Shown piece by piece: positions 3,211-60,914 of a stretch of DNA of 64,000 nt. Position numbers and translations under genes: made by a program. The number at the start of each line of letters is the position of its first letter. Positions within the stretch are counted from its first letter, which is position 1. Origin of the DNA: Mobula hypostoma (taxonomy: Eukaryota); contig NC_086107.1 in NCBI RefSeq assembly GCF_963921235.1, positions 98,644,001-98,708,000 of the forward strand. The letters are read 5' to 3'. The notes below the pieces were generated by a model, which was given only the letters and a program-made list of their open reading frames with translations, searched no databases and had not been told where the DNA came from.

Positions 3211-4073
3211 GACTTGTGTGTGTTACCTCGCCTTGCCCTTTCTGAAGACTGTGAGAAGCTTCTGTCTGAACCCATTCCATACGCAAGTCGATTGAGGTAA
3301 TGCAAAGGGGACAAATAATGTGTTTGAGTTACAAACTACAAGGCAGGTGGACATGTAAAGGGCTGTGACAAGGTGGAGAGACCAGGAGTTCATCTTTATT
3401 GTGTAAAAGATCCGTGCAAGAGTCTGATAGCAGCAGGAAAGGAGTCTTGAGCCTGGAGGTGCAAGTTCTCTAACTTTTGTACCTTCTGCCTGATGGAAGG
3501 CGAGGGAAGAAAGAGTGGCGAGGTTGGAGGGGGGCCTTGCTTGCGCTGGCTGCTTTCCCAATGCAGTTGGAGGTGTAGGCAGAGTCACTGGAGGGGGGGC
3601 TGGATCTTGTGATAGATTAGGCTACTGTACGAATCTGGATGGGATGGCTTTGGAAGGATTTGCCATTGTAATTTCAAAATGTAGTTCCAATTTGTAAATC
3701 GAGATCATTAATGTTGAGTTCCCTCCAATAAATGAAAGTTTAACTGACATATTTATCACAAGCATGGTTGGTCCTGAATAGCTTCTTGCATGTGCAAGTA
3801 CCGCCTTGGGGCAAACGAGGATGGGTTGCCAAAATTGTACCTGTTCCAATGCAAGTTATTAATGAGTGGTACCGGTGGGCCCTCAGGAATGCTACCCATG
3901 CCACGTGCTGGTGAGGCTAGAAATAGGAAGATTATATAGCTTGACACGTGGCTGAGGAATTGGTGTAGGAGGAAGAGCTTCAGAGTTTTGGATCAATGAG
4001 CTCCCTTTCAGAGAAGGTGGGACCTGTACAGAAGGGACTGTTTGCACCTGAGCTGGAGGTGGACTAATATTCT

Positions 4074-4566
4074 TTTTTTAATATTCTTTTTATTTTTTTT
4101 ATTGCAAACAAACAAAAAAACAATAAAATACAGCACATCCACAAAAACCACGACCTTAACAAAATCAAATTAAATACTGAGCAGCAAAAGGGAGAAAAAT
4201 ATAAAGGCAAAAGTAAACATACACAGCAGAGGTGTACCTCACCAAAAAACCTCAGTCCTCACCCCGTAAGAAAGTCCAATACAGGGCCCCATATGCTTTC
4301 AAAGATGTCCCCTCTGTCCTTATTACATAGTCTCAGTCTCTCCAAATGCAAAGTATTTGCCGGTTCTCTCAGCCACAGATCATACGTAGTCACAGAGTCC
4401 ATTTTCCACATTTGCAGGATTAACTTCTTAGCAATCACCATTCCAAACAATACAGCCATTTTTTCGTACATATTGGCTGAAGATAGGGAGCTTGTTGCTC
4501 CAAGGATGGCTATGAGCGGGTCTGGTTCCCACCGCTTCCCAAAAGCCTCAGAGAAACAGTGAAAAA
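4074..4566 (-). mobile_element. 5'-truncated L1-clade LINE
   Basis: Poly(T) at 4074, L1 ORF2 C-terminus (IAKKLILQMWK...LHLERLRL...FESIWGP), perfect 15-bp TSD GTGGACTAATATTCT (4059-4073, 4567-4581). Confidence 0.85.
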
Positions 4567-5862
4567 GTGGACTAATATTCTAGTGGGAAGTTTTGTTAAT
4601 GCTCCACGGTGGGGTTTAAACTAGAGCTGCAGGAGGAAGGGAACCAAGGTGCCAGAAGAGTTAGTGGAAAGGTTGTGCAGACAGATGTTGGAATGACCTC
4701 AGACAAAGTCAGGAATCAAAAGGATGAGCATAGTGTGACTAGTGTCCTGAGCTGCATATATGTCAATGCAAGAAGTATTGTAGAGAAGACAGATGAGCAC
4801 AGGGCATGGATCAACACCTGGAATTATGATATTATAGCCATTAGTGAGACTTGGTTGCAGGAGGGGCAGGACTGGTGTGACTAGTCAGGGCAGTGCTCAG
4901 TCAGAGCAGACGGGAGAACTCGTCTAATGAGGTTTTATGGGTGGAACCGTGTAATAAGAAAGATAGCTACGTTAATGGAATTTACAGGAACAAATTTGTA
5001 GAGAGATCACAGACAGTTGCAAGAAACCCAAGTTATTAGAGGGAATGAGATAGGGCAGGTGATAAAAGTTTGTATAGCAGAACACTTTGCATCTCGTGAC
5101 TACAATGCCATTAGTTTCAAAGTAAATATGCAAAAAGATAGGTCTGGCCTGCAGGTTGAGGTTCTAAATTGGAGAAAGGGTATCAGAAAGGATTGAGACA
5201 GACTGTTTTCTGGCAAAAGGTGTGTTTGGTAAGTGGGAAGCCTTCAAGTGTGAAATTTTGAGAGTTCAAAGCTTGTTATGTACCTGTCAGAATAAAAGGT
5301 TAAGATAACAGGTGTAGGAAACCTGGATTTTCAAGGTAGATTAAGGCCCAAATTAAGAAAAAAAGGCAGGTGTGTAGGCAGGTAGGAACAAATGAGGTGT
5401 TTATGGAGTTTTTAAGAAATCAAAAGGGGTAAAAGAAGGTCTGAGGTTGCCCAAGCAGACACGGTGAAGGAGAAACCTAAGAAATTCTACAGACGTGTTA
5501 AGAGCCAAAGGATTGTAAGAGGCAAAAATGGTCCCTCTGAAAGATCAGAATAATAATCCCATGTGTGGAGCCAAAAGAGATGTGGGAGATCTGAAATGTT
5601 TGCACCTCAGGAGACGGACACGGGGTCTTTAGAAGTGAGGCAAATCTGCATCATTTTCATGGCCATGATACAGATTACAGAGGAGGCATTGTTTGCTGTC
5701 CTTAGGCAAATTACAGGATAAAGCCCCAGGGCCTGACAAGATATTCCCTCAGATCCTGCTGGAGGCAAGTGTACAAATTGCCAGGGCCCCAGCAGAGATA
5801 TTTAAATCATCCTTAGTGACAGGTGAGGTACCAGAGGACTGGAGGACAGCCAATGCTGTTCA

Positions 5863-6345
5863 AATAGTCATAGTTATAGTCATAGTCATACTTTATTGAT
5901 CCCGGAGGAAATTGGTTTTCGTTACAGTTGCACCATAAATAATAAATAGCAATAAAACCATAAATAGTTAAATAGTAATATGTAAATTATGCCAGTAAAT
6001 TATGAAATAAGTCCAGGACTAGCCTATTGGCTCAGGGTGTCTGACCCTCCAAGGGAGGAGTTGTAAAGTTTGATGGCCACAGGCAGGAATGACTTCCTAT
6101 GACGCTCTGTGTTGCATCTCGGTGGAATGAGTCTCTGGCTGAATGTACTCCTGTGCCCACCCAGTACATTATGTAGTGGATGGGAGACATTGTCCAAGAT
6201 GGCATGCAACTTAGACAGCATCCTCTTTTCAGACACCACCGTCAGAGAGTCCAGTTCCATCCCCACAACATCACTGGCCTTACGAATGAGTTTGTTGATT
6301 CTGTTGGTGTCTGCTACCCTCAGCCTGCTGCCCCGGCACACAACA
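5863..6345 (-). mobile_element. Rex1/Babar-type LINE 3' fragment nested in CR1
   Basis: ORF 6024-6341 KLIRKAS...HPLH...RHRKSFLPVAIKLYN; short tandem tail (ATAGTC)n at 5864-5892; CR1 resumes at ~6346. Confidence 0.85.
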
Positions 6346-8349
6346 ATGTTTTAAGAAAGGCTCTAAAAATAAACCAAGAAATTATAGGCTGGCAAGCCTG
6401 ACATCAGTGGTGAGAGAGTTATTGGAAGCTATACTAAGGAACTGGGTGTATAAGTAATTGGATAGACATGGACTGATTAAGGATAGTCAGCAAGGCTTTG
6501 TGCGTGGCACGTCATGTCTAACCAACCTTAGAATTTTTCAAGGAAGTTGCCAGGAAAGTGGATGGAGGCAAGGCATTGGATGTTGTCTACATGGACTTCA
6601 GCAAGGCTTTTGACATGGTCCCACATGGGAGTTTGGTCAAAAAGGTTCGGTCACTCAGCATTCAGGATGAGGTAGTAAATTAGATTAGACATTGGCTTTG
6701 TGGGAGAAGCCAGAGGGTGGTAGTAGATGGTTGTCTCTCTTGACCGGAGGTCTGTGACTAGTGGCGTGCCACAGGGATCGGTGCTGGATCCTTTGTTGTT
6801 TGTCATCTATATCAATGATCTGGACGATAATGTGGTTAACTGGATCAGCAAATTTGTGGATGACGCCAAGATTGGGGGTGCAGTAGACAGCGAGGAAGAC
6901 TATCATGGCTTGCAGTGGGATCTGAACCAACCGGAAAAATGGGCTGAAAAATGCAAGATGGAATTTAATGCAGACAAGTATGAGGTTCTGCACTTCGGCA
7001 GGACCAACCAGGGTAGGTCTCGCGCAGTGAATGGTAGGGCACTGAGGGGTGTGGTAGAACAAAGGGATCTGGGAATACAAGTCCATAATTCATTGAAAAT
7101 AGTGCCACAGGTAGATAAGGTTGTAAAGAAAGCTTTTGGCATATTGGCCTTCATAGAGCAAAGTATTGAGTACAGGAGATGGGATGTTATGTTGAAGTTG
7201 TATAAGCTGTTGGTGAGGCCTAATTTGGAGTATCGTGTGCAGTTTTAGTCACCTACCTACAGGAAAGATGTAAGTAGGGTTGAAAGAGTAGAGAGAAAAT
7301 TTACAAGGATGTTGCCGAGTCTGGAGGACCAGAGTTATAAGGAAAGATTGAAGAGGTTAGGACTTTATTCCTTGGAATGTAGAAGGTTGAGATGAGAATT
7401 GTTAGAGGTATACAGAATTAAGGTCCTGGATAAGGCAAGCAGGCTTTTTCCACTAAGGCTGGGTGGGACTACAACTAGAGGTCATGGGTTAAGGGTGAAA
7501 GGTGAAATGTTTAAGGGGTGCATGAGGGGAAACTTCAGTCAGAGGGTGGTTAGAGTGTGGAACAAGCTGCCGGCACAAATGGTGCATGCGAGCTCGATTT
7601 CAATGTTTGAGAAGTTTGGACAGGTACATGGATGGTAGGGGTATGGAAGGCTATAGTCCCGGGGCAGGTCAATGGGAGTAAGCAGTTTATAATGGTTTGG
7701 CACAGACTAGATGGACTGAATGGCCTGTTTCTGTGCTGTACTTTTCTATGATTCTATGACTATTTGAATTCATTTCTATCGTACTGAGCAACAAACAACT
7801 GATGTCTGCAGTGACATTTAATTTCCTTATTGGCATCATTCTGATGACTAAGCTCTCAACACTTGGACTCTTGCCAAAGTTCAATCAGGAATAGATTATT
7901 GTGTTGAAATGTTGCAATTTAGAGGGTCATGGGTTGACAACCTAAAAGTCAGCCTGTGGGGCCCGCGGCAGCAACTTGCATCTTGGTATAATTATAGTAA
8001 TTAGCCTTTATAATGTGAGAAATTGAACACAATGTCATACTGCAACTATATACTGTTTTAGTCAAACTGCACTGGAGTATTATATAGTTTTGGTTTCCTT
8101 ATTTAATAATTACATGCTAAAGGAAAAGAGCACATGATAAATATACTTTATTGTTGAATCCTGTTATGGAAGTTCAGCAGGCCGAGTTACAGGCTACTCA
8201 TACAAACTGCTGGAAGAACTCAGTAGGTCAGGCAGCATCTGTGGAAATGAATAAGCAGTTGACGTTTTGGAATGAGGACTGGAAAAGAAGGGGGAAGATA
8301 CCAGAGCAAACTGCCACTGCTCCTCAGGGTGTCCATTTCCTAGTCTCCT

Positions 8350-8660
8350 GCCGTTTCATAGGAGCAGGAGCCATTCAACTTTGTCCGACCAACCCTGATT
8401 AATCAAGAATTAGTCAGGTCACTAAAAGTGTGTGGGGAAAAGGCAGAAGAATCCCTATCAAACTCCACTTTAAATACACCCAATGACTTGGCCTATACAG
8501 CCGTGGCAATGAATTCCACAGATTCACAATCCTTTGGCTAAAGAAATTCCTCACTATCTCTGTTCTGAAGAGATTACCTTCTATTCTGAAGCTGTGCTCT
8601 CTGGTCCTAGACTCTCCCACTATTGGAAACATCTCCATGTCTACTCTGGGCCTTGCAATC
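8350..8660 (-). mobile_element. CR1 3' fragment
   Basis: MFPIVGESRTREHSFRIEG...RNFFSQRIVNLWNSLP motif. Confidence 0.8.
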
Positions 8661-9029
8661 TATTTGTGCCTTGATGCATCTGTTCATGACAGCAATGATA
8701 TAAATTAACACCGCACAGTCCTCGTGGAGACAAAAATCCTGTCTTCACCCAGTGACACTTACCACACTAAATGGGACAGACTCAAAGCAGTTCTGGTGGT
8801 TCAAAACTAGAATCAAGTTAAACACAACCAACCCAGTCCATACAAACTGTGTTAGGTACAGGTATTTCCTTAATATAGGCTTTCAGCAGCTCTGAGAAGA
8901 GTCTTTATTTACCTGGTGTCCATCTGGGGAGGAACTCCAGTGGCCTTGTAATCCAAAATGACCAAAATATCGTCAGTGGTTAACTGTGCTCTGAAATGAC
9001 TGAACAAGTATTGGACCATTACTGGTAGC

Positions 9030-13363: not shown

Positions 13364-15208
13364 TTCATCACCATCATCATCATCATCATCATCAGGTGCC
13401 GTGCCCAGTTTGAGCTTTGACTGCCGTGGCCCACACACTCCTGTTTTGGGTCAAGTGGATCAATTCATTGGTATTCATTCCCAGTTCTCTGGCTGCTGTC
13501 TCCATCATCATTTGTCTTTGTCTTCCTCTTGCTTTCTTCCCTTCAATCTTTCCCATAATTACCATGCATTCTAACTCCTCTGTCCTAATCACATGTCCAA
13601 TGAAGTCACGTTGCCTTTTCATGATCTCATACATTATTTCTCTTTTTGTGTTTGCTCCTTATTGACATCCTCGTTAGATATTCATTTCGTCCATGATATT
13701 CTTTGCTTCCTCCTCAAAAACCACATTTCTGCTGCTTCAATTCGATTCCTCATGTTACTAGATATTGTCCAACATTCTGAGCCATATAACATAACTGGAT
13801 AAACGTAACATTTCAGTACTCTGAGACGGGTTGTCATGCCTAGTTTAGTATTGGTCAGTATACTCTTCATTATCGTAAAGGTGTCTTTTGCCATCCCTAT
13901 TCTTCTTTTGATGTCCATGTCGCACCTGCCATCTGATGTCACCCAGCTTCCTAAGCAGCAAAAGTTCTGTACTTGTTTTATGTCTTCCCCGTTTATTCTC
14001 AGCCTGCAGATAGGATTCTCCTTCTTTTTGGATATCACCATACATTCTGTCTTTTTGCAATTGATAGATAGACCCATTTTTGCACTTTCTTCAACAATTG
14101 TATCAATTAAATTTTGTAGTTCTTCCTTCGTACTTGCAATTAACACAGTGTCATCTGCATATCTGAAATTATTGAAGTTTTCACTGCCAACTTTGATTCC
14201 CAAGATGTCTCTTATTTTTTGTAATATTGTTTCACTGTACGCATTAAATAAATCAGGGAAGAAAACACACCCTTGTCTAACGCCTCTCTTGATTTTTATA
14301 AACTAACTGACTTCTCCATCTATTCTTACAGCGGCAGTTTGTTCCCAATACAGATTTCTGATTAGGTGGAGGTCTTTCGAATCTAGATCTAAAGTTTTCC
14401 GTAATATTTCAAATAACTTTTATGTAGTGGATAAAACAAACAAACAAATCTTTTTGCACTTGAATAGCTCATTCTGATAGTATCCTTAACATCAATATTG
14501 CATTTTTTGTATCTTTGTCTTTCACAAAACCACATTGTTCTTTACCCATTTCAGCTTGTATCTTACTTTTAGCTCTTGTCATCAAAATTCTTAGAAGTAT
14601 CTTGGTGATATGACTCGTTAAACTTATGGGCCTATGTAATCCACATTCTATTGCTCCAGGTTTCTTAAGAAGAATGATAAACACTGATTTTTTCATCTCT
14701 TCTGATATTATTCCAGTCTCATAAATGTCATTGATTAAATCAGTAAGTTTTTCAATTCCATAATCTTCAAGGGCGATAATTTGTTCTATTACTAATTCAT
14801 CAGGACCTGCTGCCTTTCCTTTCTTCATCTTATATATTGCATTACGAACTTCAGATTTTAAAATACTTGGACCTTCAATCTTTTTCTTAGTTTCTGGTTT
14901 TTCACCTCAGTCATCTTCAAACAATTCCTGAATATACTCAGTCCATCTGTTCATAATCTCATCTTTTTCCATGATAGTGGTACTGTCCTTTGCTTTCAAA
15001 CATCCACCTGAAGAACAGAGGAGCTTTTTACCAATGATAGTCTTGATTTGTTGATGTAACCTTTTTGGATCAGTAATAGGGATTCTTTCTATTTGCTCAC
15101 ATTCCTGGTTTAACTATTCTTCTTTGGCTTTTTGACATAAGTTTTTAACTTTTTTATCTAAGGACTTACATTCTATAGGATTTGCTTTCTTCTGTCTCCT
15201 TTCTTTCT
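13364..15208 (-). mobile_element. 5'-truncated RTE-clade LINE, relatively young
   Basis: GKAAGPDE...RPISLTSHITK...EQCGF, NNFRYADD, YGSECWT, GKIEGKKARGRQR; (GAT)n tail; 10-bp TSD ATATACATCT (13354-13363, 15209-15218). Confidence 0.9.
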
Positions 15209-29289: not shown

Positions 29290-29640
29290 ATTATATGCTG
29301 TTGGTGTTCATGGTCTTTTGACCACGATTGTTCTTGGCAAATTCCTCTCCAGAAATGGTTTGCCATTGCCGCCTTCTGGGCAGTGTCTTTACAAGATGGC
29401 TGACCCCAGCCATCGTCGATACTGTTCAGAGATTGTCTGCCTGGTGTCAGTGGTCGCACAACCAAGAGTTGTGATATACACTGGCTCCTCATACGACCAT
29501 CCGCCACCAGCTCCCATGGCTTCACGTGACCCTGATCGCGGGGATGGGGGTTAAGGGTGACCTGCAGGCCAGCGGAGGGAAGGAGTGCCTTATAGCTCCT
29601 TTGGCAGAGATGCATGCCCAGCCCGCCACCCGATGGATAG
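29290..29640 (-). mobile_element. RTE-tailed SINE-like element
   Basis: The minus strand has AGAAGGCGGCAATGGCAAACCA, resembling the BovB/RTE-associated SINE motif. Confidence 0.5.
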
Positions 29641-29911
29641 AGCACTGATGAAGTAGATGTTGATGTGGATCATTTTCAAGTTCATTTCGATGGGTTTTCG
29701 CTATCACTTCATTTGTGCTTTTTTTCAAGAAGGGTGGCAAGGTTCCAGCTGGAGTTGTGCAAATACAGAGAAATTCTCTCTTTTTTATAAGAAGCCACAG
29801 AATAAATTGATGAAAACAACAGGAATTCTGCAGATGCTGGAAATTCAAGCAACATACATCAAAGTTGCTGGTGAACGCAGCAGGCCAGGCAGCATCTATA
29901 GGAAGAGGTGC

Positions 29912-29947
29912 AGTCGACGTTTCAGGCCGAGACCCTTCGTCAGGACT
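29912..29947 (-). ncRNA. Minimal type I hammerhead ribozyme motif
   Basis: The minus strand reads AGUC-CUGACGA-AGG(GUCUCGG)CCU-GAAA-CG-UC-GACU: intact core, stem I AGUC/GACU. Confidence 0.7.
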
Positions 29948-30019
29948 AACTGAAGGAAGAGTGAGTAAGAGATTTGAAAGCTCCAGCTTTCAAATCCCTT
30001 ACTCACTCTTCCTTCAGTT

Positions 30020-30055
30020 AGTCCTGACGAAGGGTCTCGGCCTGAAACGTCGACT
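30020..30055 (+). ncRNA. Minimal type I hammerhead ribozyme motif
   Basis: AGUC-CUGACGA-AGG(GUCUCGG)CCU-GAAA-CG-UC-GACU; palindromic ACGU in place of stem III; GUC cleavage triplet at 30049-30051. Confidence 0.7.
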
Positions 30056-30810
30056 GCGCCTCTTCCTATAGAATAAATTGATGAAAAAGGTTTTGTGGAT
30101 TAAAAATGAGTTTTGTGCAGCTGGGGTTAAGTTCAATTTCAAGTTTGCTATCATTCCAGCTGTATACCCCAAACAAAATAATGTACAATGCAATACGCAT
30201 AACTCACACACAACACATAAAGTAGCTTTACCACGAATAATTTAACAAATAAGATGGTGCATTTACTACACAAGTTAAAAAATAAAACAGTATGACGTTT
30301 CTGCCACCTCATCCGTGGTGAGACCTGGGTGGTGGCAGGCAGTTCAATAGTTCTACGTGTGGGGATGGAGAAGCTGTTTGTCATCCTAACAGTTCTAGTC
30401 CCAATGCAAATACTGATTCTCCTTGGGGAAGAGGAAGTTGACAGAAGTTTGTGTGAAGTATATTTTAAATTTTGAAATGTTTAGTTGAAGTATTTTTTTT
30501 AAAAGTTGTGCCATAACCTCTTACTCATACCCATGCCTCAGCTAATGAAAGCAAATACTTCATGCTCGGCCTTCACACTCTTAACTCCTTTGTTTCTTCA
30601 TCTCATGTTCTCGATATTTATTGCTTATCATTATTATTTGCTTTTCATTTTGCATTTACACAGTCTGTATTTTGCACATTGGTTGTTTGTCTTAGGTGCA
30701 GTCTTTCATCGATTCCATTGTGCTTCTTTGTGTTTGCTGTGAATGCCAGCACAAAAATGAATCTCGGGGTTAGAATATGGTGACATATATGTAATTTGAA
30801 AATAAGACGA

Positions 30811-40347: not shown

Positions 40348-41609
40348 CCTGAAGAAGGGACTTGACCCGAAATGTTGATTGTTTATTCATAGCCATAAAT
40401 GCTGCCTGACCTGCTGAATTCCTCCATCATTTTGTGTGTTCCTAAGTGTATTTTCCCACTCAACCCCATTCCCTGCTTTCTCCCCATGACCTTTGAAGCC
40501 CTTACTAATCAAGAAGCTATCAACCTTAAATATACCCAATAACTTGGCTTCCACAGTCATCTGTGGCAATGAATTCCACAGATTCACCACCCTCTGGCTA
40601 AAGAAATTCCTCCTCATCTCTGTTCTAAAGTCTATTCTGAGCATGTCCCCTCTGGTCCCAGGTACCACAGTTGCCGGGGTGCGTGGCCACGCAGTAACTG
40701 AAATGCTCCCACGCACGTAGCCTTCGTTGCCGCGCAGCTAGAATTTTCTTTTATGTAATATTTTATTGAAGTGTCGTGCAGTTTTAAGGTCGTCTAACAA
40801 TTTCCTGTTCAGAGCAATGGGTGGTCGGCGCAGCTGTAAGATAAAATAGAAGGAACACTGCTGGATACTCTCCTGATTGGAAACACCCTCTCCACGTCCA
40901 CTTTATCAATAATTCAGAAGTTTCAGTGAGGTCCCCCATCATTCCTCTAAACTCCAGAGAGTACCATCAAATGCTCCTCCCACATTAACCTTTACATTGC
41001 CGCGATCATTCTTGTGAACAACCTCTGGACCCTCTCCACTCCAGCACTTCCTTTCTGATCCTGTGTCTCATGGCCTTGTGCTCTTTTCAGTGTCATGGGT
41101 AACACACACTCACAGTAAATGTACACTGCACCTGCCCTATTGGTTAGAGAGGCATTGGCCTCTCCACATCTGTGAATGGTATTTTCTAGATAGAAAAAGT
41201 GATGAGTTAAGGCCCATGTCAAATCAGGTTTATTATCACTGGCATGTATCATGAAATTTGTTGTACGATGCAATATATTTTTAAAAACTATAAATTACAA
41301 ACAGTTGACATTTCAGGTGGAGACCCTCAACAGGACTACTGTTTATTCCTCTCTATAGATGCTGCCAGACTTGCCGAGTTCCTCCAGTATTTCATGTGTC
41401 TTGCTCAAGATTTCCAGCATTTTCAGAATCTCGTGTTTAAAATTTCACGGTAATAAACCCGATTCTGATTTTTTTTTTTGTCTCTAATCAGATGGATCTT
41501 GCGAGTGTTTAGATTTGTTGCACCCAGCTTTTCGCTTTGTCTCCCTCCGTGAACGCCCGGCCAAAGCGTGTTTTCCAGAGCCCTGCAGTTGTTTGCGGTG
41601 TGTCTGACT

Positions 41610-41635
41610 GTCCTTCTCTGCTTGCCCCCTGTAGG
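41610..41635 (+). promoter_or_regulatory. MGAT3: Splice acceptor of the MGAT3 coding exon
   Basis: Polypyrimidine tract TCCTTCTCTGCTTGCCCCCTGTAG ending at 41634, then G-ATG. This fits the known MGAT3 layout of non-coding upstream exon(s) and a single coding exon. Confidence 0.85.
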
Positions 41636-43168
41636 ATGAAGATGCGGCGCCGCCGCATGGTCTTAATGCTGTGTATGGCAGGACTGTGCCTGATCTCCTT
41701 CCTGCACTTCCGCAAGGCCCTGTCCTACATCACGTTCTCCCGCGAGCTCTCTGTCTTCAGCCCTTCCCTCAGGTCCATGTTCGTCGACTCTCACCTCTTT
41801 TGGAAGCAGAACGAGGAGGAGGAGGATGCGAGTGCCAGTCTGGGTCTCCAGACGGCGCCCGGTGCTCACCAGGCAGGCTGGCCACATCTCCACCGAGCCC
41901 AGTTCCATCTGAAAGATGACGAGACAGAGTACTTCATACGGACCAAGGCGGGAGCCATTTGCTTCAAGCAGGGAACCAAAACGGAGAGCAGGATGGTGGG
42001 TTCGATGGAGGGAGCCAATCCCTGGGGCCACGGTTCCGTGGACAAGGCACTGACTCGTGAAGCAGGTGGCAGTGGGAGGCTGAGGCGTAGGTGGGTTGGG
42101 TGCCCTTGTCTCCCGGGCTGGCATGGGCCCTACTGTGGAGTGCCCACCATGGTCCAGTATTCCAACTTGCCCACGAAAGAGCGCCTCACCCCGCGGGCTA
42201 CGTCTCGCAGGGTCATCAACGCCATCAACATCAACCACGAGTTTGATCTGCTGGACGTCCGGTTCCATGAGCTGGGAAATGTAGTTGATGTGTTCATCAT
42301 CTGCGAATCCAACTTCACCGCCTTTGGAGACCCCAAACCACTGAAGTTCATTGAGATGCTCCTGAATGGGAGCTACAGCTACATAGCTCACAAGATCCTG
42401 TATGTGTTCCTGGACCACTTCCCCAGCGGAGGCAGGCAGGATGGCTGGATTGCTGACGACTACCTGCGGACCTTTCTCAGCCAGAACGGGATGAGCCGAA
42501 TCACCCAGCTCCGCGACGACGACATCTTCCTCATCAACGACGCCGATGAGATCCCGGCCCGCGACGGAGTTCTCTTCCTTAAACTCTTCGATGGGTGGAC
42601 GGAGCCTTTCGCCTTCCACCTTCGCAAGTCTCTCTATGGCTTTTTCTGGAAGCAGCCGGGGAGCCTGGAGGTGGTGTCGGGCTGCTCTGTGGCCATGCTG
42701 TTCATGGTGTACAACGGAGACGGCATCAAGCTGCGGCGGAGAGAGTACTACCTGATGCCAAACTTCCGGCAATACGAGAACAGCACCGGGCACATCCTGG
42801 TGCCGTGGTCGCTGGGAAGCGCACTTCACTTCGCCGGCTGGCACTGCTCCTGGTGCTTCAGGCCAGAGGGGATCCGTTACAAACTGCTGTCGGCCCAGAA
42901 TGGCGACTTCCCCCGCTGGGGGAACTACCAGGAGAAAAGGGATCTGAACTACATCCAGGAGCTGATCCAGACTGGGGGCTGGTTTGACGGTACTGAGCAG
43001 GAGTATCCGCCTGCGGACCCCAAAGAGCACATGTACGCCCCCAAGTATCTGCTGCAAAACTTTGAGAGGTACAAGTACATGTTGGAGAACCCGTACCGAA
43101 AGCAGAGCTGGGACCGGGGGCTGGGGAGAGCTGCTGAAATGTACAATCAGAGTGGGAAGATTACATAA
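41636..43168 (+). CDS. MGAT3: Beta-1,4-mannosyl-glycoprotein 4-beta-N-acetylglucosaminyltransferase (GnT-III, GT17), 510 aa, single coding exon
   Basis: MKMRRRRMVLMLCMAGLCLISFLHF type II anchor; EYFIRTKAG, CLPGWHGPYCGVPT, RRVINAININHEFDLLDVRFHEL, DADEIPARDGVLFLKL (DxD), AGWHCSWCF and SAQNGDFPRWG match vertebrate MGAT3. Confidence 0.98.
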   Translation: MKMRRRRMVLMLCMAGLCLISFLHFRKALSYITFSRELSVFSPSLRSMFVDSHLFWKQNEEEEDASASLGLQTAPGAHQAGWPHLHRAQFHLKDDETEYFIRTKAGAICFKQGTKTESRMVGSMEGANPWGHGSVDKALTREAGGSGRLRRRWVGCPCLPGWHGPYCGVPTMVQYSNLPTKERLTPRATSRRVINAININHEFDLLDVRFHELGNVVDVFIICESNFTAFGDPKPLKFIEMLLNGSYSYIAHKILYVFLDHFPSGGRQDGWIADDYLRTFLSQNGMSRITQLRDDDIFLINDADEIPARDGVLFLKLFDGWTEPFAFHLRKSLYGFFWKQPGSLEVVSGCSVAMLFMVYNGDGIKLRRREYYLMPNFRQYENSTGHILVPWSLGSALHFAGWHCSWCFRPEGIRYKLLSAQNGDFPRWGNYQEKRDLNYIQELIQTGGWFDGTEQEYPPADPKEHMYAPKYLLQNFERYKYMLENPYRKQSWDRGLGRAAEMYNQSGKIT

Positions 43169-52737: not shown

Positions 52738-55352
52738 TAACATAGAACATAGGACATAGAACAGTACAGCACAGTACAGGCCCTTCGGCCCACAATGTTG
52801 TGCCGACCCTCAAACCCTGCCTGCCATATAAGCCCCCACCTTAGATTCCTCCATATACCTGTCCAGTAGTCTCTTAAACTTCACGAGTGTATCTGCCTCC
52901 ACCACTGACTAAGGCAGTGCATTCCACGCACCAACCACTCTGAGTAAAAAACCTTCCCCTAATATCCCCCTTGAACTTCCCACCCTTTACCTTAAAGCCA
53001 TGTCCTCTTGTATTGAGCAGTGGTGCCCTGGGGAAGAGGCGCTGGCTATCCACTCTATCTATTCCTCTTATTATCTTGTACACCTCTATCATGTCTCCTC
53101 TCATCCTCCTTCTCTCCAAAGAGTAAAGCCCCAGCTCCCTTAATCTCTGATCATAATGCATACTTTCTAAACCAGGCAGCATCCTGGTAAATCTCCTCTG
53201 TACCCTTTCCAATGCTTCCACATCCTTCCTATAGTGAGGTGACCAGAACTGGACACAGTACTCCAAGTGTGGCCTAACCAGAGTTCTATAGAGCTGCATC
53301 ATTACATCGCGACTCAAACTCTATCCCTCGACTTATGAAAGCTAACACCCCATAAGCTTTCTTAACTACCCTATCCACCTGTGAGGCAACTTTCAGGGAT
53401 CTGTGGACATGTACCCCGAGATCCCTCCGCTCCTCCACACTACCAAGTATCCTGCCATTTACTTTGTACTCTGCCTTGGAGTTTGTCCTTCCAAAGTGTA
53501 CCACCTCACACTTCTCTGGGTTGAACTCCATCTGCCACTTCTCAGCCCACTTCTGCATCCTATCAATGTCTCTCTGCAATCTTTGACAGTCTTCTACACT
53601 ATCTACAACACCACCAACCTTTGTGTCATCTGCAAACTTGCCAACCCACCCTTCTACCCCCACATCCAGGTCGTTAATAAAAATCACAAAAAGTAGAGGT
53701 TCCAGAACAGATCCTTGTGGGACACCACTAGTCACAATCCTCCAATCTGAATGTACTCCCTCCACCACCACCCTCTGCCTTCTGCAGGCAAGCCAATTCT
53801 GAATCCACCTGGCCAAACTTCCCTGGATCCCATGCCTTCTAACTTTCTGAATAAGCCTACCGTGTGGAACCTTGTCAAATGCCTTACTAAAATCCATATA
53901 GATCACATCCACTGCACTACCCTCATCTATATGCCTGGTCACCTCCTCAAAGAACTCTATCAGGCTTGTTAGACACGATCTGCCCTTCACAAAGCCATGC
54001 TGACTGTCCCTGATCAGACCATGATTCTCTAAATGCCTATAGATCCTATCTCTAAGAATCTTTTCCAACAGCTTTCCCACCACAGATGTAAGGCTCACTG
54101 GTCTAGAATTACCAGGACTATCCCTACTACCTTTTTTGAACAAGGGAACAACATTCGCCTCCCTCCAATCCTCCGGTACCATTCCTGTGGATAATGAGGA
54201 CATAAAGATCCTAGCCAGAGGCTCAGCAATCTCTTTCTTCACCTCGTGGAGCAGCCTGGGGAATATTCCGTCAGGCCCTGGGGACTTATCCGTCCTAATG
54301 TATTTTAACAACTCCAACACCTCCTCTCCCTTAATATGAACATGCTCCAGAACATCAACCTCACTCATATTGTCCTCACCATCATCAAGTTCCCTCTCAT
54401 TGGTGAATACCGAAGAGAAGTATTCATTGAGGACCTCGCTCACTTCCACAGCCTCCAGGCTCATCTTCCCACCTTTATCTCTAATCGGTCCTACCTTCAC
54501 TCCTGTCATCCTTTTTTTCTTCACATAATTGAAGAATGCCTTGGGGTTTTCCTTTACCCTACTCGCCAAGGCCTTCTCATGCCCCCTTCTTGCTCTTCTC
54601 AGCCCCTTCTTAAGCTCCTTTCTTGCTTCCCTATATTCCTCAATAGACCCATCTGATCCTTGCTTCCTAAACCTCATGTATGCTGCCTTCTTCCACCTGA
54701 CTAGATTTTCCACCTCACTTGTCACCCATGGTTCCTTCACCCTACCATTCTTTATCTTCCTCACCGGGACAAATCTATCCCTAACATCCTGTAAGAGATC
54801 TCTAAACATCAATCATATTCCATAGTACATTTCCCTGCAAAAACATCATCCCAATTCACGCCCGCAAGTTCTAGCCTTATAGCCTCATAATTTGCCTTTC
54901 CCCAATTAAAAATTTTCCTGTCCTCTTTGATTCTATCCTTTTCCATGATAATTATAAAGGCCAGGGAGCAGTGGTCACTGTCCCCCAGATGCTCACCCAC
55001 TGAGAGATCTGTGACCTGACCCGGTTCATTACCTAGTACTAGATCTAGTATGGCATTCCCCCTGGTCGGCCTGTCCACCTACTGTGACAGGAACCCATCC
55101 TGGATACACTTAACAAATTCTGCCCCATCTAAACCCTTGGAACTAATCAGGTGCCAATCAATATTAGGGAAGTTAAAGTCACCCATGATAACAACCCTGT
55201 TATTTTTGCACTTTTCCAAAATCTGCCTCCCAATCTGCTCCCCTGTATCTCTGCTGCTACCAGGGGGCCTATAGAATACCCCCAGTAGAGTAACTGCTCC
55301 CTTCCTGTTCCTGACTTCCACCCATATGGACTCATAAGAGGATCCTGCTAAC
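52738..55352 (-). mobile_element. Young 5'-truncated CR1 LINE (end of APE, RT, tail)
   Basis: 508-aa ORF 53286-54812 with KSPGPDG, QHGF, MDFSKAFDKVPH, GVPQGSVL, KFADD; adjacent frames give MGDFNFP, LDLVL, SDH and RPHLEYCVQFW; (AACATAG)n tail; only a few frameshifts/stops. Confidence 0.95.
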
Positions 55353-56150
55353 AAACAGGATGCTAACGATCAATGACATAATGAGTTGAATGAACTGAAC
55401 TGATTAACTAAAACGGAGACTGGTGTAGAAGGAATCAAAATGGGCAAAGGACAAACTAAAATATGTGGGTGTGCCAGATGTGGTAATTTAACCTTCAAAT
55501 CATTTCTTATCCCATAGGAAGAGTGAGCGTAGCAACGAGACAGAAGGTGGGCATCCTGCATCAGCACGGTCTCTCCCAAACAGAAATTTCAAGATGTGCA
55601 GCCCATGCTCCTCCTGAAGAAGCACCAAGAAACCGAGGACCAGGAACGCAGTGGCCGGCCACGGAAACCGAGTGCAACAGGCGGGCGAGATGTCCCTTCT
55701 AAATCGGAAAAAGACCAGCACTGCCACCAGCTCTGAACTGACAGAGACCATTGGAGCCCAAGGACACCCCTCCACAGTCGGAGGTCTTGTCAGAAGTGGT
55801 CTTCATGGAAGAGTTGCTACCAGCAGAAACAAAGCCAAGAGGCTCACCTACGCACAAAAGCACAAGGACTGGAATGCTGAACAATGACAGCAGGCGCTCC
55901 GGACTGACGAGACAAAAATTTGAAAACTTTGGCTCAGACGGAAGGCAGTTTGCCCGTAGAAGAGCTGGCGAGCGCGACGCGGGTGAGTTGTCTGCAGCCA
56001 ACCGTGAGGCCCAGCGGAGGCTCCCTGCAAGTCTGGGGCTGCATTTCTGTGAATGAGTTGCTGATCTGCTCAGAATTAATGGAATCCTCGCTGCCGAGAC
56101 GTATGAGCACATTATCATCCATCACGCAATAATCATCGGCCCCAACTTCA
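55353..56150 (+). mobile_element. Tc1-like transposase fragment (5' end probably at ~52340-52700)
   Basis: LVRSGLHGRVA...KRLTYAQKHKDWNAEQ, TDETK, GGSLQVWGCIS motifs; frameshifted. Confidence 0.75.
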
Positions 56151-57550
56151 CTCGTCTGCCCCAGAGCAGACTTAACCCTGTTGGCGATAGCCTTGGACAG
56201 GATCTTGTAATTCACATTCAGGAGAGAGATGGGTCTCCAATTTCTAATGTCCTCCCTTTCCCCCTTCTGCTTGTAGATGAGGGTGATGATGCCCTTCCTC
56301 ATGGACTCAGACATACTGCCGGCCAGAAGCATAGCATTGTACACTTCCAGCAGGTCTGGGCCCATCCAGTTCCACAGAGCCGAGTACAACTCAGCCGGTA
56401 AGCCGTCGCTTCCGGGAGTCCTACCCGACCCAAAGGAACGGATGGAGCCTGTCAGCTCGTCCAGGGTCAGTGGCTGATCCAGACTCTCCCGCTTGCCGTC
56501 GTCTAAGACCTGCGTGATAGACGACAGGAAGTTGCGGGAGGCTGTGGATTCTGTGGCCTTTTCGTCGTACAGACCGGCATAGAAGGACTTGCAGATCCTC
56601 AGTATGTCGGTCTGCGAGGACGCGACTGAGCCGTCCTCTTCCTTAAGGTTGTAGATCACAGAGCTCCCCCTGTGCACCTTTTGGAAGAAGAAGCGTGAGC
56701 ACGTCTCGTCCTGCTCCACGATTTGGACCCTTGATCGGAAGATGATCTTGGAAGATTCGGCGGCGAGGTTATGGGCTTGCCGGCCCTTCACCTCTCGCAA
56801 TTCCTCCCTGACATCCACCCCCTTCGACTGCAGAAGGAGAAGTTGCTGCAACTCTGTCTGGAGTTTACGCAGTTCCCTCTGCTCCTGCCTTGCCTTCTGG
56901 ATACCCTTGCGGATGAAGAACCTCTTAATGTTCTCCTTGGTGGCTTCCCACCAGTGAACCGGGGAATCGAAGAAGGCTTTCAAGGTTCTCCAACCTGTGT
57001 ACTCCCTCTCTAGTTCCTCGATGTTCTCTGGGGTCAACAGCTTTACATTCAGCTTCCACGTCCCCCTGCCTGCCTTCTGGTCCTCCCGTAAAAGACAGGT
57101 GGCTCTCAGAAGGCAGTGGTCAGAGAAGAACACCGGCGTGACGTCGGTGGACCTGACCGTGAGGGACTCTGACAGGAAGAGGAAGTCGATCCGGGAGCGG
57201 GCTGAGCCGTCCGACCGTGTCCAGGTGGCTTGCGGCTGTGCTCCACCTGTGGGGGTGCCAAAGGCGTCGCGCAGCTTGGCCGTCTTTACTATTTCCTTCA
57301 GGAGTCTGGAGGTACTGTCCAGCCTGCCGTCGGCGCTGCCGGGTCCTCCAGCCGCATCAATGGTGCAGTTGAAGTCTCCGGCCAGAACGACCGGCTGGGA
57401 CGTCACCAGCAGCGGTGGGAGCCGCTCGCTCCGCACGGGGGAGGCGTACACGTTGATTCGCCGGCATTTTCCGTCCACCACTAGGAGGTGACCCCCAATG
57501 AGCTCTTTGACTTGGGTGATTGAGAAGTTGCCTCCCCGTGGCAGAGCGGC
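56151..57550 (-). mobile_element. Tx1-clade LINE ORF2 (APE endonuclease, linker, RT N-terminus)
   Basis: INVYASP, LAGDFNC, RIDFLF, FSDHC, WKLN, TPGSDGLPAELY, NWRPISLLNVNYKILSKAIANRVK; open for ~440 codons. Confidence 0.9.
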
Positions 57551-57959
57551 TGCCGCCCGTCTCTGTTGAGAGTCATCGTTGACACCCCCCTGTACTCACC
57601 CCGATGCTTCAGTCTGCCTCGCCGCTTCCAGATGGAGTCGTTCATGACCCAGCGCCTCAGCTATGGTCTTTTCCCGAGTCAGCCTGTGATCTTGGACATT
57701 TCCGGACCCTGTCCCCGATCTCCGGACAGGGCATAGCGGTGGAGTCCTAAACTGTGCGCACGGGCTCTATCAGTTCCCGTAACAAAAAAAAAGAAAGAAC
57801 AAGCAGAAGGCGTGGAAAAGAAAGAGAAATAATTGGATAGATTTGCTATCTGATAGATGTCGCCCGAGGAATCGTTGTTCGCCTTCCTGGTCAGAAGTTT
57901 ATGTACTGCTCTATGTGACAATAATAAACTAATTTACCTGTGCTTTTTAAACACTTTTT

Positions 57960-59075: not shown

Positions 59076-59243
59076 TCCGCCCAACATCTAGTAAATTTCT
59101 TTTAGTGCACCAACATCCTTTCCATAGTGTGGTAACCAGAACTACAGTACATACAATATTCCATTCGTGGTCCAACCTTTATCTTGCACAGCCCACATCT
59201 TATACTCAACAGCCTACCTACAAAGGCAAGCAAGTTAAATGCC

Positions 59244-59471
59244 TTAGCAACACACACAAAACGCCGGAGGAACTCGGCGGGCCAGGCAGCGTCCATGGAA
59301 AAGAGTAAATGGTCGGCGTTTCGGGCCCAGACCCTCTCAGTCCTGAAGAAGGGTCTCAGCCCGAAACGTCGACTGTTTTTCTTTTCCCCAGATACTGTCT
59401 GACCCGCTGAGCTCCTCCAGCATTTTGTGCGTGTTGCTTTGGATTTCCCGCATCTGCAGATTCTCTCTTGT
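59244..59471. mobile_element. Penelope-derived palindromic insertion
   Basis: Inverted arms; TSD AAGTTAAATGCC (59232-59243) / AAGCTAAATGCC (59472-59483). Confidence 0.75.
59338..59375 (+). ncRNA. Minimal type I hammerhead ribozyme motif
   Basis: CAGUC-CUGAAGA-A-GGG(UCUCAG)CCC-GAAA-CG-UC-GACUG; 5-bp stem I, intact core. Confidence 0.7.
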
Positions 59472-60914
59472 AAGCTAAATGCCAGTGGCTACCCGATCCG
59501 GCTGCGCTGTCATTTCATCAGGCCCTGGCGGGCAATGCACAAACGCCGGAAGAACTCGGCGGGTCCAGGCAGCATCTGCGGAGGAAAATGAACAGTCGAT
59601 GTTTAGGGTCGAGACCCTTCATCGGGACAGGGCGTATTTTATTTCAAACACCCCCTGTTTGAGACACGCGAGTTCCGAATTCTCAACACGCACCTCCCCA
59701 AACTCTCCAGCCTGCCCTTTTCCTTCTCGCTGGCGAATACTGACACCACGTGTTCATTCAGAAGAACAATTCCACCCTTCATCCCTCGCTGCCCTCTTGC
59801 TTCTAATATAATTATAAAACATTTTGTTCTTTTTCCCGAGTTTCTTTGTTCAATGTTATCACATCTCACCGCATCTGCCTCTTAACTTTACCGAGGCGCG
59901 CCGAATCTGAACCCTTACTGATTTTAAATGGTGGTGGTTGTCCGTCGTGTCCGCGGATGACGGGAGAACTGTGCGGGAGTTTTTAGTCCCGGTGATTGAA
60001 TTCCTTATCTCTTACATCCTTTATAAATACGAGGAGTAAAAATCTATATGTTAAGTCTCTGTCTTAATGTGCCATTTTGTAGTAATTTGCAATAAATAGT
60101 AACAGGACAGTCAATCTAGCATAGAAATACAATTGTATCAGCGTGAATTTATCAGTCTGGTGGCCTGGTGGGAGAAGCTGTCCTGGAGCCTGGCTTTGAT
60201 GCTGCGGTAACGTTTTAAAGTGGGGAAAGCTGTCGCACTGTGGGGCTGTCCTCTCTCTCGACCTCAGAAGCCCGGTCCAGTGGTACGAGCAAGCGTCACA
60301 AACTGGGGTCTTCCTTGGTCGCAGTGGCTGACCTCGACGGCTCCTGGGCCTCGTCATGCCCTTCGCTCTCCACCGAGTGTCGCAGAACCGCCCACTGACT
60401 TCGCATGCTGGGACGGGCGTGTCCCCATCTCACCGGGTACCCTCGCCTGGTCAGTCCTGCCTGCCGAAGTGACGCACCGGGCTGTGGCTGCTGTCGCAGG
60501 CGAACAGCTCCTTGGAGCCACGGGTGAGAGCTGAGTATGAGCGAGCTGCCCCGGAATGGACACGGGAAGCCCTTTCACCAGGGGTCCTATCCCCCCGGAC
60601 ATCCCATGTACCCCAACTAATTTTAGACTTAGAAAGTCAAGCAGCATTTCCACTCCCGCCCTCAGGAATCATTCACAGAGCCAACTCAAACCCTATCTGC
60701 GAGACTGCGAACCGACCGTGGATCCAAGCCGACTACATGAAAGCTTGCGGATTGACCTGTGCTCAGGGTTCCCAAAAGGTTCCACCACCTGCCCATCTTC
60801 ATTTCCTACAGTAAGCCCCCCCCCCCGCCCCGTAAGACTCTGTATACACAATGCTTTTTAAAAAAACCTTCCTGGATGCATTTAAGAACAAGCACCCATC
60901 CAAACATCTCCAAA

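Follow-up and report, generated by a model that had tools for sequence, protein, structure and literature searches.

How does a near-perfect hairpin with a hammerhead ribozyme motif on each of its strands come to stand in a genome, and does it do anything there? The question is raised by a 64,000-nucleotide stretch of Mobula hypostoma DNA (contig NC_086107.1 of assembly GCF_963921235.1, positions 98,644,001 to 98,708,000, hereafter the window), in which an earlier note, made from the letters alone, had pointed to such a hairpin at 29799-30087 and had suggested both an origin from Penelope-like retroelements and a possible existence as long double-stranded RNA. Here, we describe the layout of the insert, its source family and the many similar loci in the same genome, before weighing the ways in which it could have arisen. 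We conclude that the insert is very probably a shortened, dead double copy of the 3′ end of a Penelope-like element (PLE), its two arms lying head to head.

Layout of the insert and its empty site

A repeat search finds AGAATAAATTGATGAAAA as an exact 18-nt direct repeat, with copies at 29799-29816 and 30070-30087 that flank an insert of 253 bp. The insert holds an inverted repeat with arms at 29895-29982 and 29985-30072, each of 88 nt, 98% complementary and separated by 2 nt. The two arms mismatch at two positions, 29909 (T versus C, at a CpG site) and 29970 (A versus G), and with two differences in 88 nt the near-perfect 88-bp hairpin of the earlier note is indeed there. Positions within the element are given below as c, the window position minus 29813, so that c1 is 29814. 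The parts of the unit, as we read them, are the following.

29799-29816, no strand: target-site duplication, left copy (exact repeat; the empty site in organism B holds one copy)
29814-29982, minus strand: tail-bearing arm, the last 169 nt (c1-c169) of the PLE 3′ untranslated end (alignment to other copies)
29814-29846, minus strand: 'tail', c1-c33, a terminal extension on one arm only (comparison with 17 fold-back loci)
29916-29943, minus strand: minimal hammerhead motif, sense strand of the element, predicted cut between 29916 and 29915 (pattern match, anatomy table)
29983-29984, no strand: fold-back centre CC, 2 nt (inverted-repeat search, copy alignment)
29985-30072, plus strand: inverted tail-less arm, c173/c169 down to c82, the last 3 nt (AGA) shared with the target
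30024-30051, plus strand: minimal hammerhead motif, predicted cut after 30051 (pattern match, anatomy table)
30070-30087, no strand: target-site duplication, right copy (exact repeat, empty site)

The left 81 nt of the insert have no inverted partner, and its two outer ends do not form an inverted repeat. Short overlaps are found at all three joins, namely AAA on the left, AGA on the right and 2 nt (CT/AG) in the centre. Because the element starts at 29814 in other copies, the target-site duplication is 15-18 nt long, and the AAA at the left join may be the first bases of the element. On the right, the arm overlaps the repeat copy by 3 nt (AGA, 30070-30072), while at the centre, read on the minus strand, the right arm extends the element by four bases (GGAG, c170-c173), which leaves the 2-nt overlap at the join. 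Compared by BLAST with a copy that has no hairpin (L055), the insert resolves into two segments, c1-169 and c82-173.

That the flanking repeat is a true target-site duplication follows from a related organism with an empty site. A contig of 378 nt from run X5 (organism B) joins 29575-29798 directly to 30070-30223 and shows 3 differences over its length; the site is empty there, with the repeat present once, and the insertion is real and lineage-specific. The 18-bp duplication claimed in the earlier note therefore holds, with its length refined to 15-18 nt. Contigs from run X1 (organism A, possibly the sample of the assembly itself) bridge both outer junctions without differences (29575-29835 and 30046-30220), and a contig of 181 nt from run X11 (organism C), the single piece listed, has a match that begins at 30070, which is suggestive of an empty site there too. 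The insertion is recent.

The source element

The left 166 nt of the insert recur in at least 39 other places of the 3.48-Gb genome, which comprises 200 contigs, at 98-99% identity over 164-166 bases, as counted among the 40 that were scored of 687 first-look candidates. Of 29 other loci fetched, 28 were taken into an alignment (L029 was left out), and all 28 begin at an identical AAACAACAGG and extend beyond c169, as GGAGGGGGAGGGGGAGAT..., with a fold-back at c169 in none of them. Since the aligned copies share this start and run past c169, the left part of the insert is the terminal 169 nt of a longer element. Just before AAACAACAGG, the bases are GC in about 12 of the 29 copies (L003, L007, L012, L015, L017, L018, L020-L022, L024, L037 and L039), which hints that the end of the element varies and may lie 2 nt beyond this start. 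The octamer AARCAACA begins both c1-8 (AAACAACA, 29814-29821) and c34-41 (AAGCAACA, 29847-29854), and its two copies may mark two start sites of reverse transcription.

In longer copies, open frames lie on the strand that carries the hammerhead motif, opposite in direction to c. In copy L032, PADKGG stands in a frame of 505 aa, and a second frame, of 294 aa, has a CX..C...GVIYC...YIGET region at its end; the GIY-YIG domain (PF01541), for which the cut-off is 22.6 bits, scores 23.1 in L031 and 22.3 in L032. One reverse transcriptase (RT) frame contains RYIDDC and has 229 longer homologues at E≤1e-10. Among the 120 RT homologues listed, most carry PF00078 (RVT_1) and 25 also carry PF01541, the best named ones being uncharacterised bamboo shark proteins at 71% and 67% identity. 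In a protein atlas, the N-terminal frame falls among clusters named 'reverse transcriptase domain-containing' (score 0.96), and sequence searches of PDB with the RT and endonuclease frames returned chance-level matches only. The order of the frames, in copies that are frameshifted, points to an RT fused to a C-terminal GIY-YIG endonuclease, a fusion that excerpts of Craig et al. 2021 (PMC8557442) give as the defining trait of endonuclease-positive PLEs. The PLE origin proposed in the earlier note agrees with this finding of RT and GIY-YIG coding on the motif-bearing strand of longer family copies. The direction of these frames makes c1 the 3′ end of the element, whose sense strand is the minus strand of the window for the left arm and the plus strand for the right. 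A motif stands on each strand of the window because each arm carries it on the sense strand of the element and the arms are inverted. The family is young and very abundant in the genome.

Anatomy of the hammerhead motif

A pattern search of the window places CTGACGAAGGGTCTCGGCCTGAAACGTC at 29916-29943 (minus) and 30024-30051 (plus), with a diverged third copy at 59343-59370 (plus), and the motif pattern has no match in 100 shuffles of the window. On the plus strand, helix I pairs UAGUC (30019-30023) with GACUG (30052-30056), the last pair being G.U, and is followed by the core CUGACGA (30024-30030) and a bulged A (30031). Stem II pairs GGGU (30032-30035) with GCCU (30040-30043) around the loop CUCG, and the 3′ part consists of GAAA (30044-30047), CG (30048-30049) and UC (30050-30051), with the predicted cut after 30051. 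The catalytic boxes CUGANGA and GAAA and an NUH triplet are present on both arms in type-I order, while helix III is absent, GAAA-CG-UC running on without a loop and ACGU being self-complementary. Within the element, the motif occupies c103-c130, some 100-130 nt from the 3′ end, on the sense strand. Every part named in the earlier note (stem I, CUGACGA, stem II, GAAA, the palindromic ACGU and GUC) can be read on both arms, and its cut site after 30051 coincides with the position predicted here from the motif.

Minimal hammerhead ribozymes (min-HHRs) have been described in PLEs, with catalytic boxes, an unpaired base between 9 and 10.1, a palindromic 15.2-16.2, a helix I of 4-5 bp and a highly conserved G10.1-C11.1 pair (Cervera and de la Pena 2014, PMC4209133). 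The motif of the window shares with these the type-I order, the boxes, the lack of helix III, the palindromic CG, the 5-bp helix I, the position on the sense strand of the terminal region and the massive occurrence in mostly single, truncated copies. It departs from them in a G.U at 10.1-11.1 where the rule is G-C, and in a stem II of 4 bp against the 7-8 bp of the Schistosoma families. By descriptor, then, it counts as a minimal PLE hammerhead with all features except the pair at 10.1-11.1.

The scale of its occurrence was measured with the pattern CTGANGA-N(10-24)-GAAACGTC, which has 90,772 matches in the genome (45,335 + 45,437) against 512 (255 + 257) for a reversed-pattern control. These roughly 90,800 matches compare with the 4,000-9,000 given for coelacanth and Xenopus (PMC4209133), the descriptors being different ones. 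Motifs in which 10.2 is not G number 3,581 against 125 in the control, and they revealed two further families. At ten places on contig C1 (L072-L081) these appear as minimal hammerheads with stem II GUCACC...GGUGAU and GAUGGC...GUCAUU, and both have an extra base after A9 together with GAAACGUC. A position-by-position table was drawn up of 12 motifs from the three families, A (that of the window), B and C, with five rows each for B and C picked by eye among 100 rows listed (five of the five clear GUCACC-type and five of the six GAUGGC-type). The base between 9 and 10.1 is unpaired in all 12 tabulated motifs, and position 10.1 is G in 12/12, paired with U or C in 11/12. Across the three families the pairs of stem II change on both sides and stay paired, at 10.2-11.2 (G-C, U-A, A-U), at 10.3-11.3 (G-C, C-G, U-A) and at 10.4-11.4 (U.G, A-U, G-C). 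Helix I reads AGUC/GACU in family A and UGCA/UGCA in family B, with three of four pairs differing on both sides, and is poor in family C.

Fold-backs across the genome

The arrangement seen in the window is a habit of its family. Among 28 young copies sampled, a second, inverted copy sits right at the truncation point in twelve and within 43-316 nt of it in three more; two of the remainder have one further out. Searches started from the centre of this hairpin and from one sister hairpin yielded 16 more loci that turn round at c152-c187, or 17 with the window. All 17 have a first arm that begins at c1-c2. The second arm begins at c30-c38 in 13 of them and at c61, c81, c82 (that of the window) and c91 in the other four. 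In 14 of the 17, the whole unit lies between exact direct repeats of at least 8 nt, measuring 13-18 nt in 13 of these, and all of the repeats differ in sequence. One sister fold-back (L043 / L040, C52:17411674-17411980) has a flanking repeat, AGCAGATGCTGGAA, that resembles c16-c29 of the element, and this copy may have landed in older PLE-like sequence.

Head-to-head pairs of motifs were counted genome-wide with the self-complementary pattern CCCTTCGTCAG-N-CTGACGAAGGG, which gave 2,041 pairs separated by 0-29 nt, 1,055 by 30-59 nt and 546 by 60-90 nt, against a control of 0 in each class. At least 3,642 loci thus carry such pairs 0-90 nt apart, the gap in the window being 80 nt. Among the first 100 motif places listed, pairs within 1 kb are of the (-,+) kind in eight cases, (+,-) in none and on the same strand in two. 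The ribozyme motif on each strand, to which the earlier note drew attention, is a by-product of an inverted duplication that the family has made thousands of times, and no designed trait of this insert. Two other ways of accounting for the turn-round were dropped: a hot spot at c169-173, before a G-rich tract, since pair counts fall smoothly with distance, and a hairpin-bearing master copy, since joins vary (c152 to c187, with spacers of 0-26 nt) and the flanking repeats all differ.

A proposed origin at integration

The hairpin most likely formed at integration and not later. That the unit was inserted whole is shown by the single duplication that encloses the two arms, by the empty site in a relative and by the same design in thousands of separate insertions. 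As to how, the account that we favour, with a little better than even confidence, is that both cut strands of the target primed complementary DNA (cDNA) synthesis on element RNA. The endonuclease would cut both target strands, and each 3′ end would then prime cDNA on the element RNA, the left target end at the terminal start site c1 and the right target end internally at c82-84, through a match of 3 nt to the target. Both cDNAs would stop near c169-173 and be joined over the 2-nt overlap.

Excerpts of Frangieh et al. 2024 (PMC11167929) describe just such a capacity in a purified PLE protein, which cuts and extends both target strands and whose RT starts at two internal sites that bound the tail. 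By analogy, the arms of the sister loci, which set out from c1 and from about c34, match the two published start sites.

Weighing the alternatives

A single cDNA that started at c1, stalled near c169-173, snapped back on itself, copied to c82 and joined the other target end would give near-identical arms (2 differences in 88) with a loop of only 2 nt, as found, and would suit the perfect or near-perfect centres common in fold-backs (for example GAAAGCTTTC at 4 of the 50 loci listed) and arms that are usually of one sub-family, on a by-eye reading of the rows listed. Nothing in such self-copying would make it stop at c30-38, the outer limit of 13 of 17 second arms, in agreement with the second PLE start and the tail; nor can it yield the inverted arms that reach further 5′ than the direct arms and cover sequence that the first arm lacks, as in L015 (c431-1639 after c1-455), L019 and L011. 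The A/G difference at c157, the one arm mismatch outside a CpG, fits sub-family polymorphism, and since a self-copy does not predict a mismatch at a sub-family marker, it too weighs against simple self-copying, the chief rival of our account, which we regard as possible and somewhat doubtful. Haplotypes at c96/c157 among the copies compared are CG (20), CA (16), TA (10) and TG (4), and the mismatch could reflect gene conversion, a mutation that struck a variable site afterwards, or the use of two RNAs as templates. At least one more of the fold-backs listed (C1:212026220) looks discordant at c157. It is conceivable, at a low probability, that the arms were copied from two RNAs delivered together and paired through the palindromic, helix-III-less hammerhead, in the manner of the retroviral dimer linkage; just as improbably, each cut end would in that case have had a separate RNA as template, with synthesis beginning at the terminal start on one and internally on the other. 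The c157 mismatch and the defined second start in sister loci are a weak hint in this direction. Two successive insertions, a 169-nt stub first and later a second PLE copy in opposite orientation exactly at its truncated end, would draw on the tendency of PLEs to land in or beside earlier copies, as excerpts of PMC6765202 have it. Against this stand the single duplication around the whole unit, a second arm that has no duplication of its own and directly abuts the duplicated target, the lack of either arm in organism B and the 14 of 17 similar units that a repeat flanks as a whole, which together leave it very improbable. Least credible is a fold-back DNA transposon or miniature inverted-repeat transposable element (MITE) with terminal inverted repeats, or an artefact of assembling palindromic reads, to which the hairpin shape and the flanking direct repeat might point. 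The left 81 nt are unpaired and the outer ends are not inverted repeats, the sequence is that of the 3′ end of an RT/GIY-YIG element, the flanking repeat has no fixed length (8-18 nt among sister units), and short-read contigs confirm both junctions, with element ends facing outward.

There remains the suggestion that the insert works where it lies, as a ribozyme on either strand or as a hairpin RNA, transcribed from an MGAT3 intron, that undergoes cleavage, ADAR editing or dicing. The gene that would supply the transcript is represented in the window by one coding exon.

41513-43168, plus strand: open frame, coding exon of a glycosyltransferase family 17 (MGAT3-type) gene (PF04724, E 6.1e-30, 104.9 bits)

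PF04724 covers only residues 226-380 of this frame, which lies on the plus strand about 11.5 kb downstream of the insert; the upstream exons were not located. Both motifs are intact, and the RNA of the insert has a very stable predicted fold with an 88-bp stem (-186.5 kcal/mol, z -24.4), so that the long double-stranded RNA of the earlier note survives as a predicted duplex, while nothing supports the role at this locus that went with it. Any transcript through the site would, on this fold, form an 88-bp duplex that locks each motif away with its own antisense. Among the data sets listed as containing this stretch, none is recorded as RNA. Reads from run X9, whose status as RNA is a guess, cover 30102-30400 at a depth of about 3.5 and show nothing at 29624-29778, which counts neither way on transcription. 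The insert is absent from the orthologous site of organism B, it is one of at least 3,642 similar pairs and dozens of other copies match it at 98-99%, with no sign of selection at the locus; these three observations argue that it has no role there. PLE min-HHRs, moreover, cleave poorly in vitro even as dimers (PMC4209133), and we hold a working unit to be highly improbable. In the parent element, by analogy with described min-HHRs, the hammerhead presumably helps to process PLE transcripts or to pair them as a dimer; in the stub it is without a role.

Several results pull the other way and must be set against our account of the insert. The pair at 10.1-11.1 is G.U in both arms and G-C in the older copy at 59343, a difference that is CpG decay (C to T before G). 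The covariation of stems, whose lack the earlier note listed among the findings that would refute it, is seen in stem II between the three families, and within family A loop changes and one-sided (wobble) stem changes alone were observed. The search with hammerhead models for which the note had called found nothing, as the covariance models of Rfam 15 gave no hammerhead match at E≤1 (2 kb), at the gathering score (window) or at E≤10 (81 nt), a failure to be expected for a motif without helix III. An isolated 53-nt arm segment folds at -11.7 kcal/mol (z +0.49), no better than shuffles, and although helices I and II appear in this fold, the core GACG pairs with CGUC. Pfam searches with the two RT frames at E≤0.01 gave no RVT_1 match, so the RT identity is carried by homologues and motifs. 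None of the contigs listed spans the hairpin centre of the locus. As to the mechanism, the start of the second arm, c82, lies outside the usual c30-38, priming by microhomology at c82-84 would depend on three shared bases, priming on two strands was shown in vitro for an anole PLE and not for the family of the window (excerpts of PMC11167929), and the c157 difference (29970 versus 29997), being a sub-family polymorphism too, tells also against this account.

Three further observations on folding and cutting belong beside these. The 200-nt native 3′ end has a minimum-energy fold without the motif. Sub-threshold matches to microRNA-precursor models of Rfam were discounted, such models matching any long perfect hairpin. 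Copy ends show no pile-up at the predicted cut 29915/29916 among the best-supported loose ends listed, which is a weak test.

Comparison with known systems

The proposed priming on two strands recalls the twin priming of LINE-1. Ostertag and Kazazian reportedly described in 2001 how the second target strand primes internally and leaves a 5′ inverted segment inside one duplication, with microhomology at the joins. Internal priming by the second strand, a single duplication and microhomology at the joins are common to both. In LINE-1, the inverted segment comes from further upstream and the parts are not duplicated, whereas here the same 88 nt are present twice and form a palindrome; the enzymes also differ, APE/L1 RT in the one case and GIY-YIG/PLE RT in the other.

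Among PLEs themselves the arrangement is familiar. Heavy 5′ truncation, an adjacent inverted copy that is itself 5′-truncated and a tail of 30-40 bp, often on one side only, are named as hallmarks in excerpts of Craig et al. 2021 (PMC8557442), and the one-sided tail likewise in those of Frangieh et al. 2024 (PMC11167929). As far as these excerpts describe canonical units, the family of the window resembles them in its RT and GIY-YIG, in an inverted copy at truncated ends, in duplications of variable length and in a tail of about 33 nt confined to one arm, and the stub differs from them in being miniature (169 + 92 nt), in having no coding sequence and in a second arm that starts from c82. Pairs of motifs 100-700 bp apart on opposite strands are already mentioned for Schistosoma (PMC4209133).

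Non-LTR retrozymes, which are short, non-coding derivatives of PLE termini with hammerheads, as this stub is, are present in the one cartilaginous fish sampled, according to excerpts of a preprint (Li, Clavereau and Pollet 2026, doi 10.64898/2026.07.22.740005). In that source they are head-to-tail tandems from which circular RNA is possible, whereas the locus in the window is a single inverted pair, head to head, with motifs on opposite strands, and cannot yield RNA of unit length by double cleavage. This preprint aside, no literature on the hammerheads of cartilaginous-fish PLEs was found in a search that did not cover supplementary tables. As for fold-back DNA transposons and MITEs, the insert lacks their features, having 81 unpaired nt on its left and flanking repeats of 8-18 nt among its sisters.

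Other features of the window

The third motif copy belongs to an older unit of similar construction.

59232-59483, no strand: second, older head-to-head PLE stub (arms 59246-59335 / 59350-59438, 80-83% complementary)

Its tail is on the right arm only, the tail-bearing arm running to about 59471, and a 12-nt flanking repeat with 1 mismatch bounds it at 59232-59243 and 59472-59483. Here, the turn-round lies inside the hammerhead region, and the motif is at 59343-59370 (plus).

Four long frames, at 53286-54812 (minus), 55934-57595 (minus), 13682-14302 (minus) and 6727-7248 (plus), show RT-like motifs (such as FADDTK and YADDT) and an endonuclease-like N-terminal part. These are probably fragments of long interspersed nuclear elements (LINEs) and unrelated to the PLE.

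What the locus means

Taken by itself, the locus matters little: it is an ordinary scar left by a retroelement, recent and neutral, that lies upstream of a glycosyltransferase-17 gene. Earlier work already covers this type of motif and its association with PLEs, the inverted arrangement, the tail, the probable working of the ribozyme as a dimer and its weak activity in vitro; only the particular family and its scale in the Mobula hypostoma genome may be new. Should the improbable reading in which two RNAs were delivered together be true, thousands of perfect hairpins could feed silencing of the family through double-stranded RNA. The stub in the window and its sister loci, at least 3,642 in number, are the footprints expected if PLE integration extends both cut strands from two starts, as an anole element does in vitro, and with about 90,800 motif matches the genome is a rich one in which to study PLE integration and the question whether minimal hammerheads cleave in vivo.

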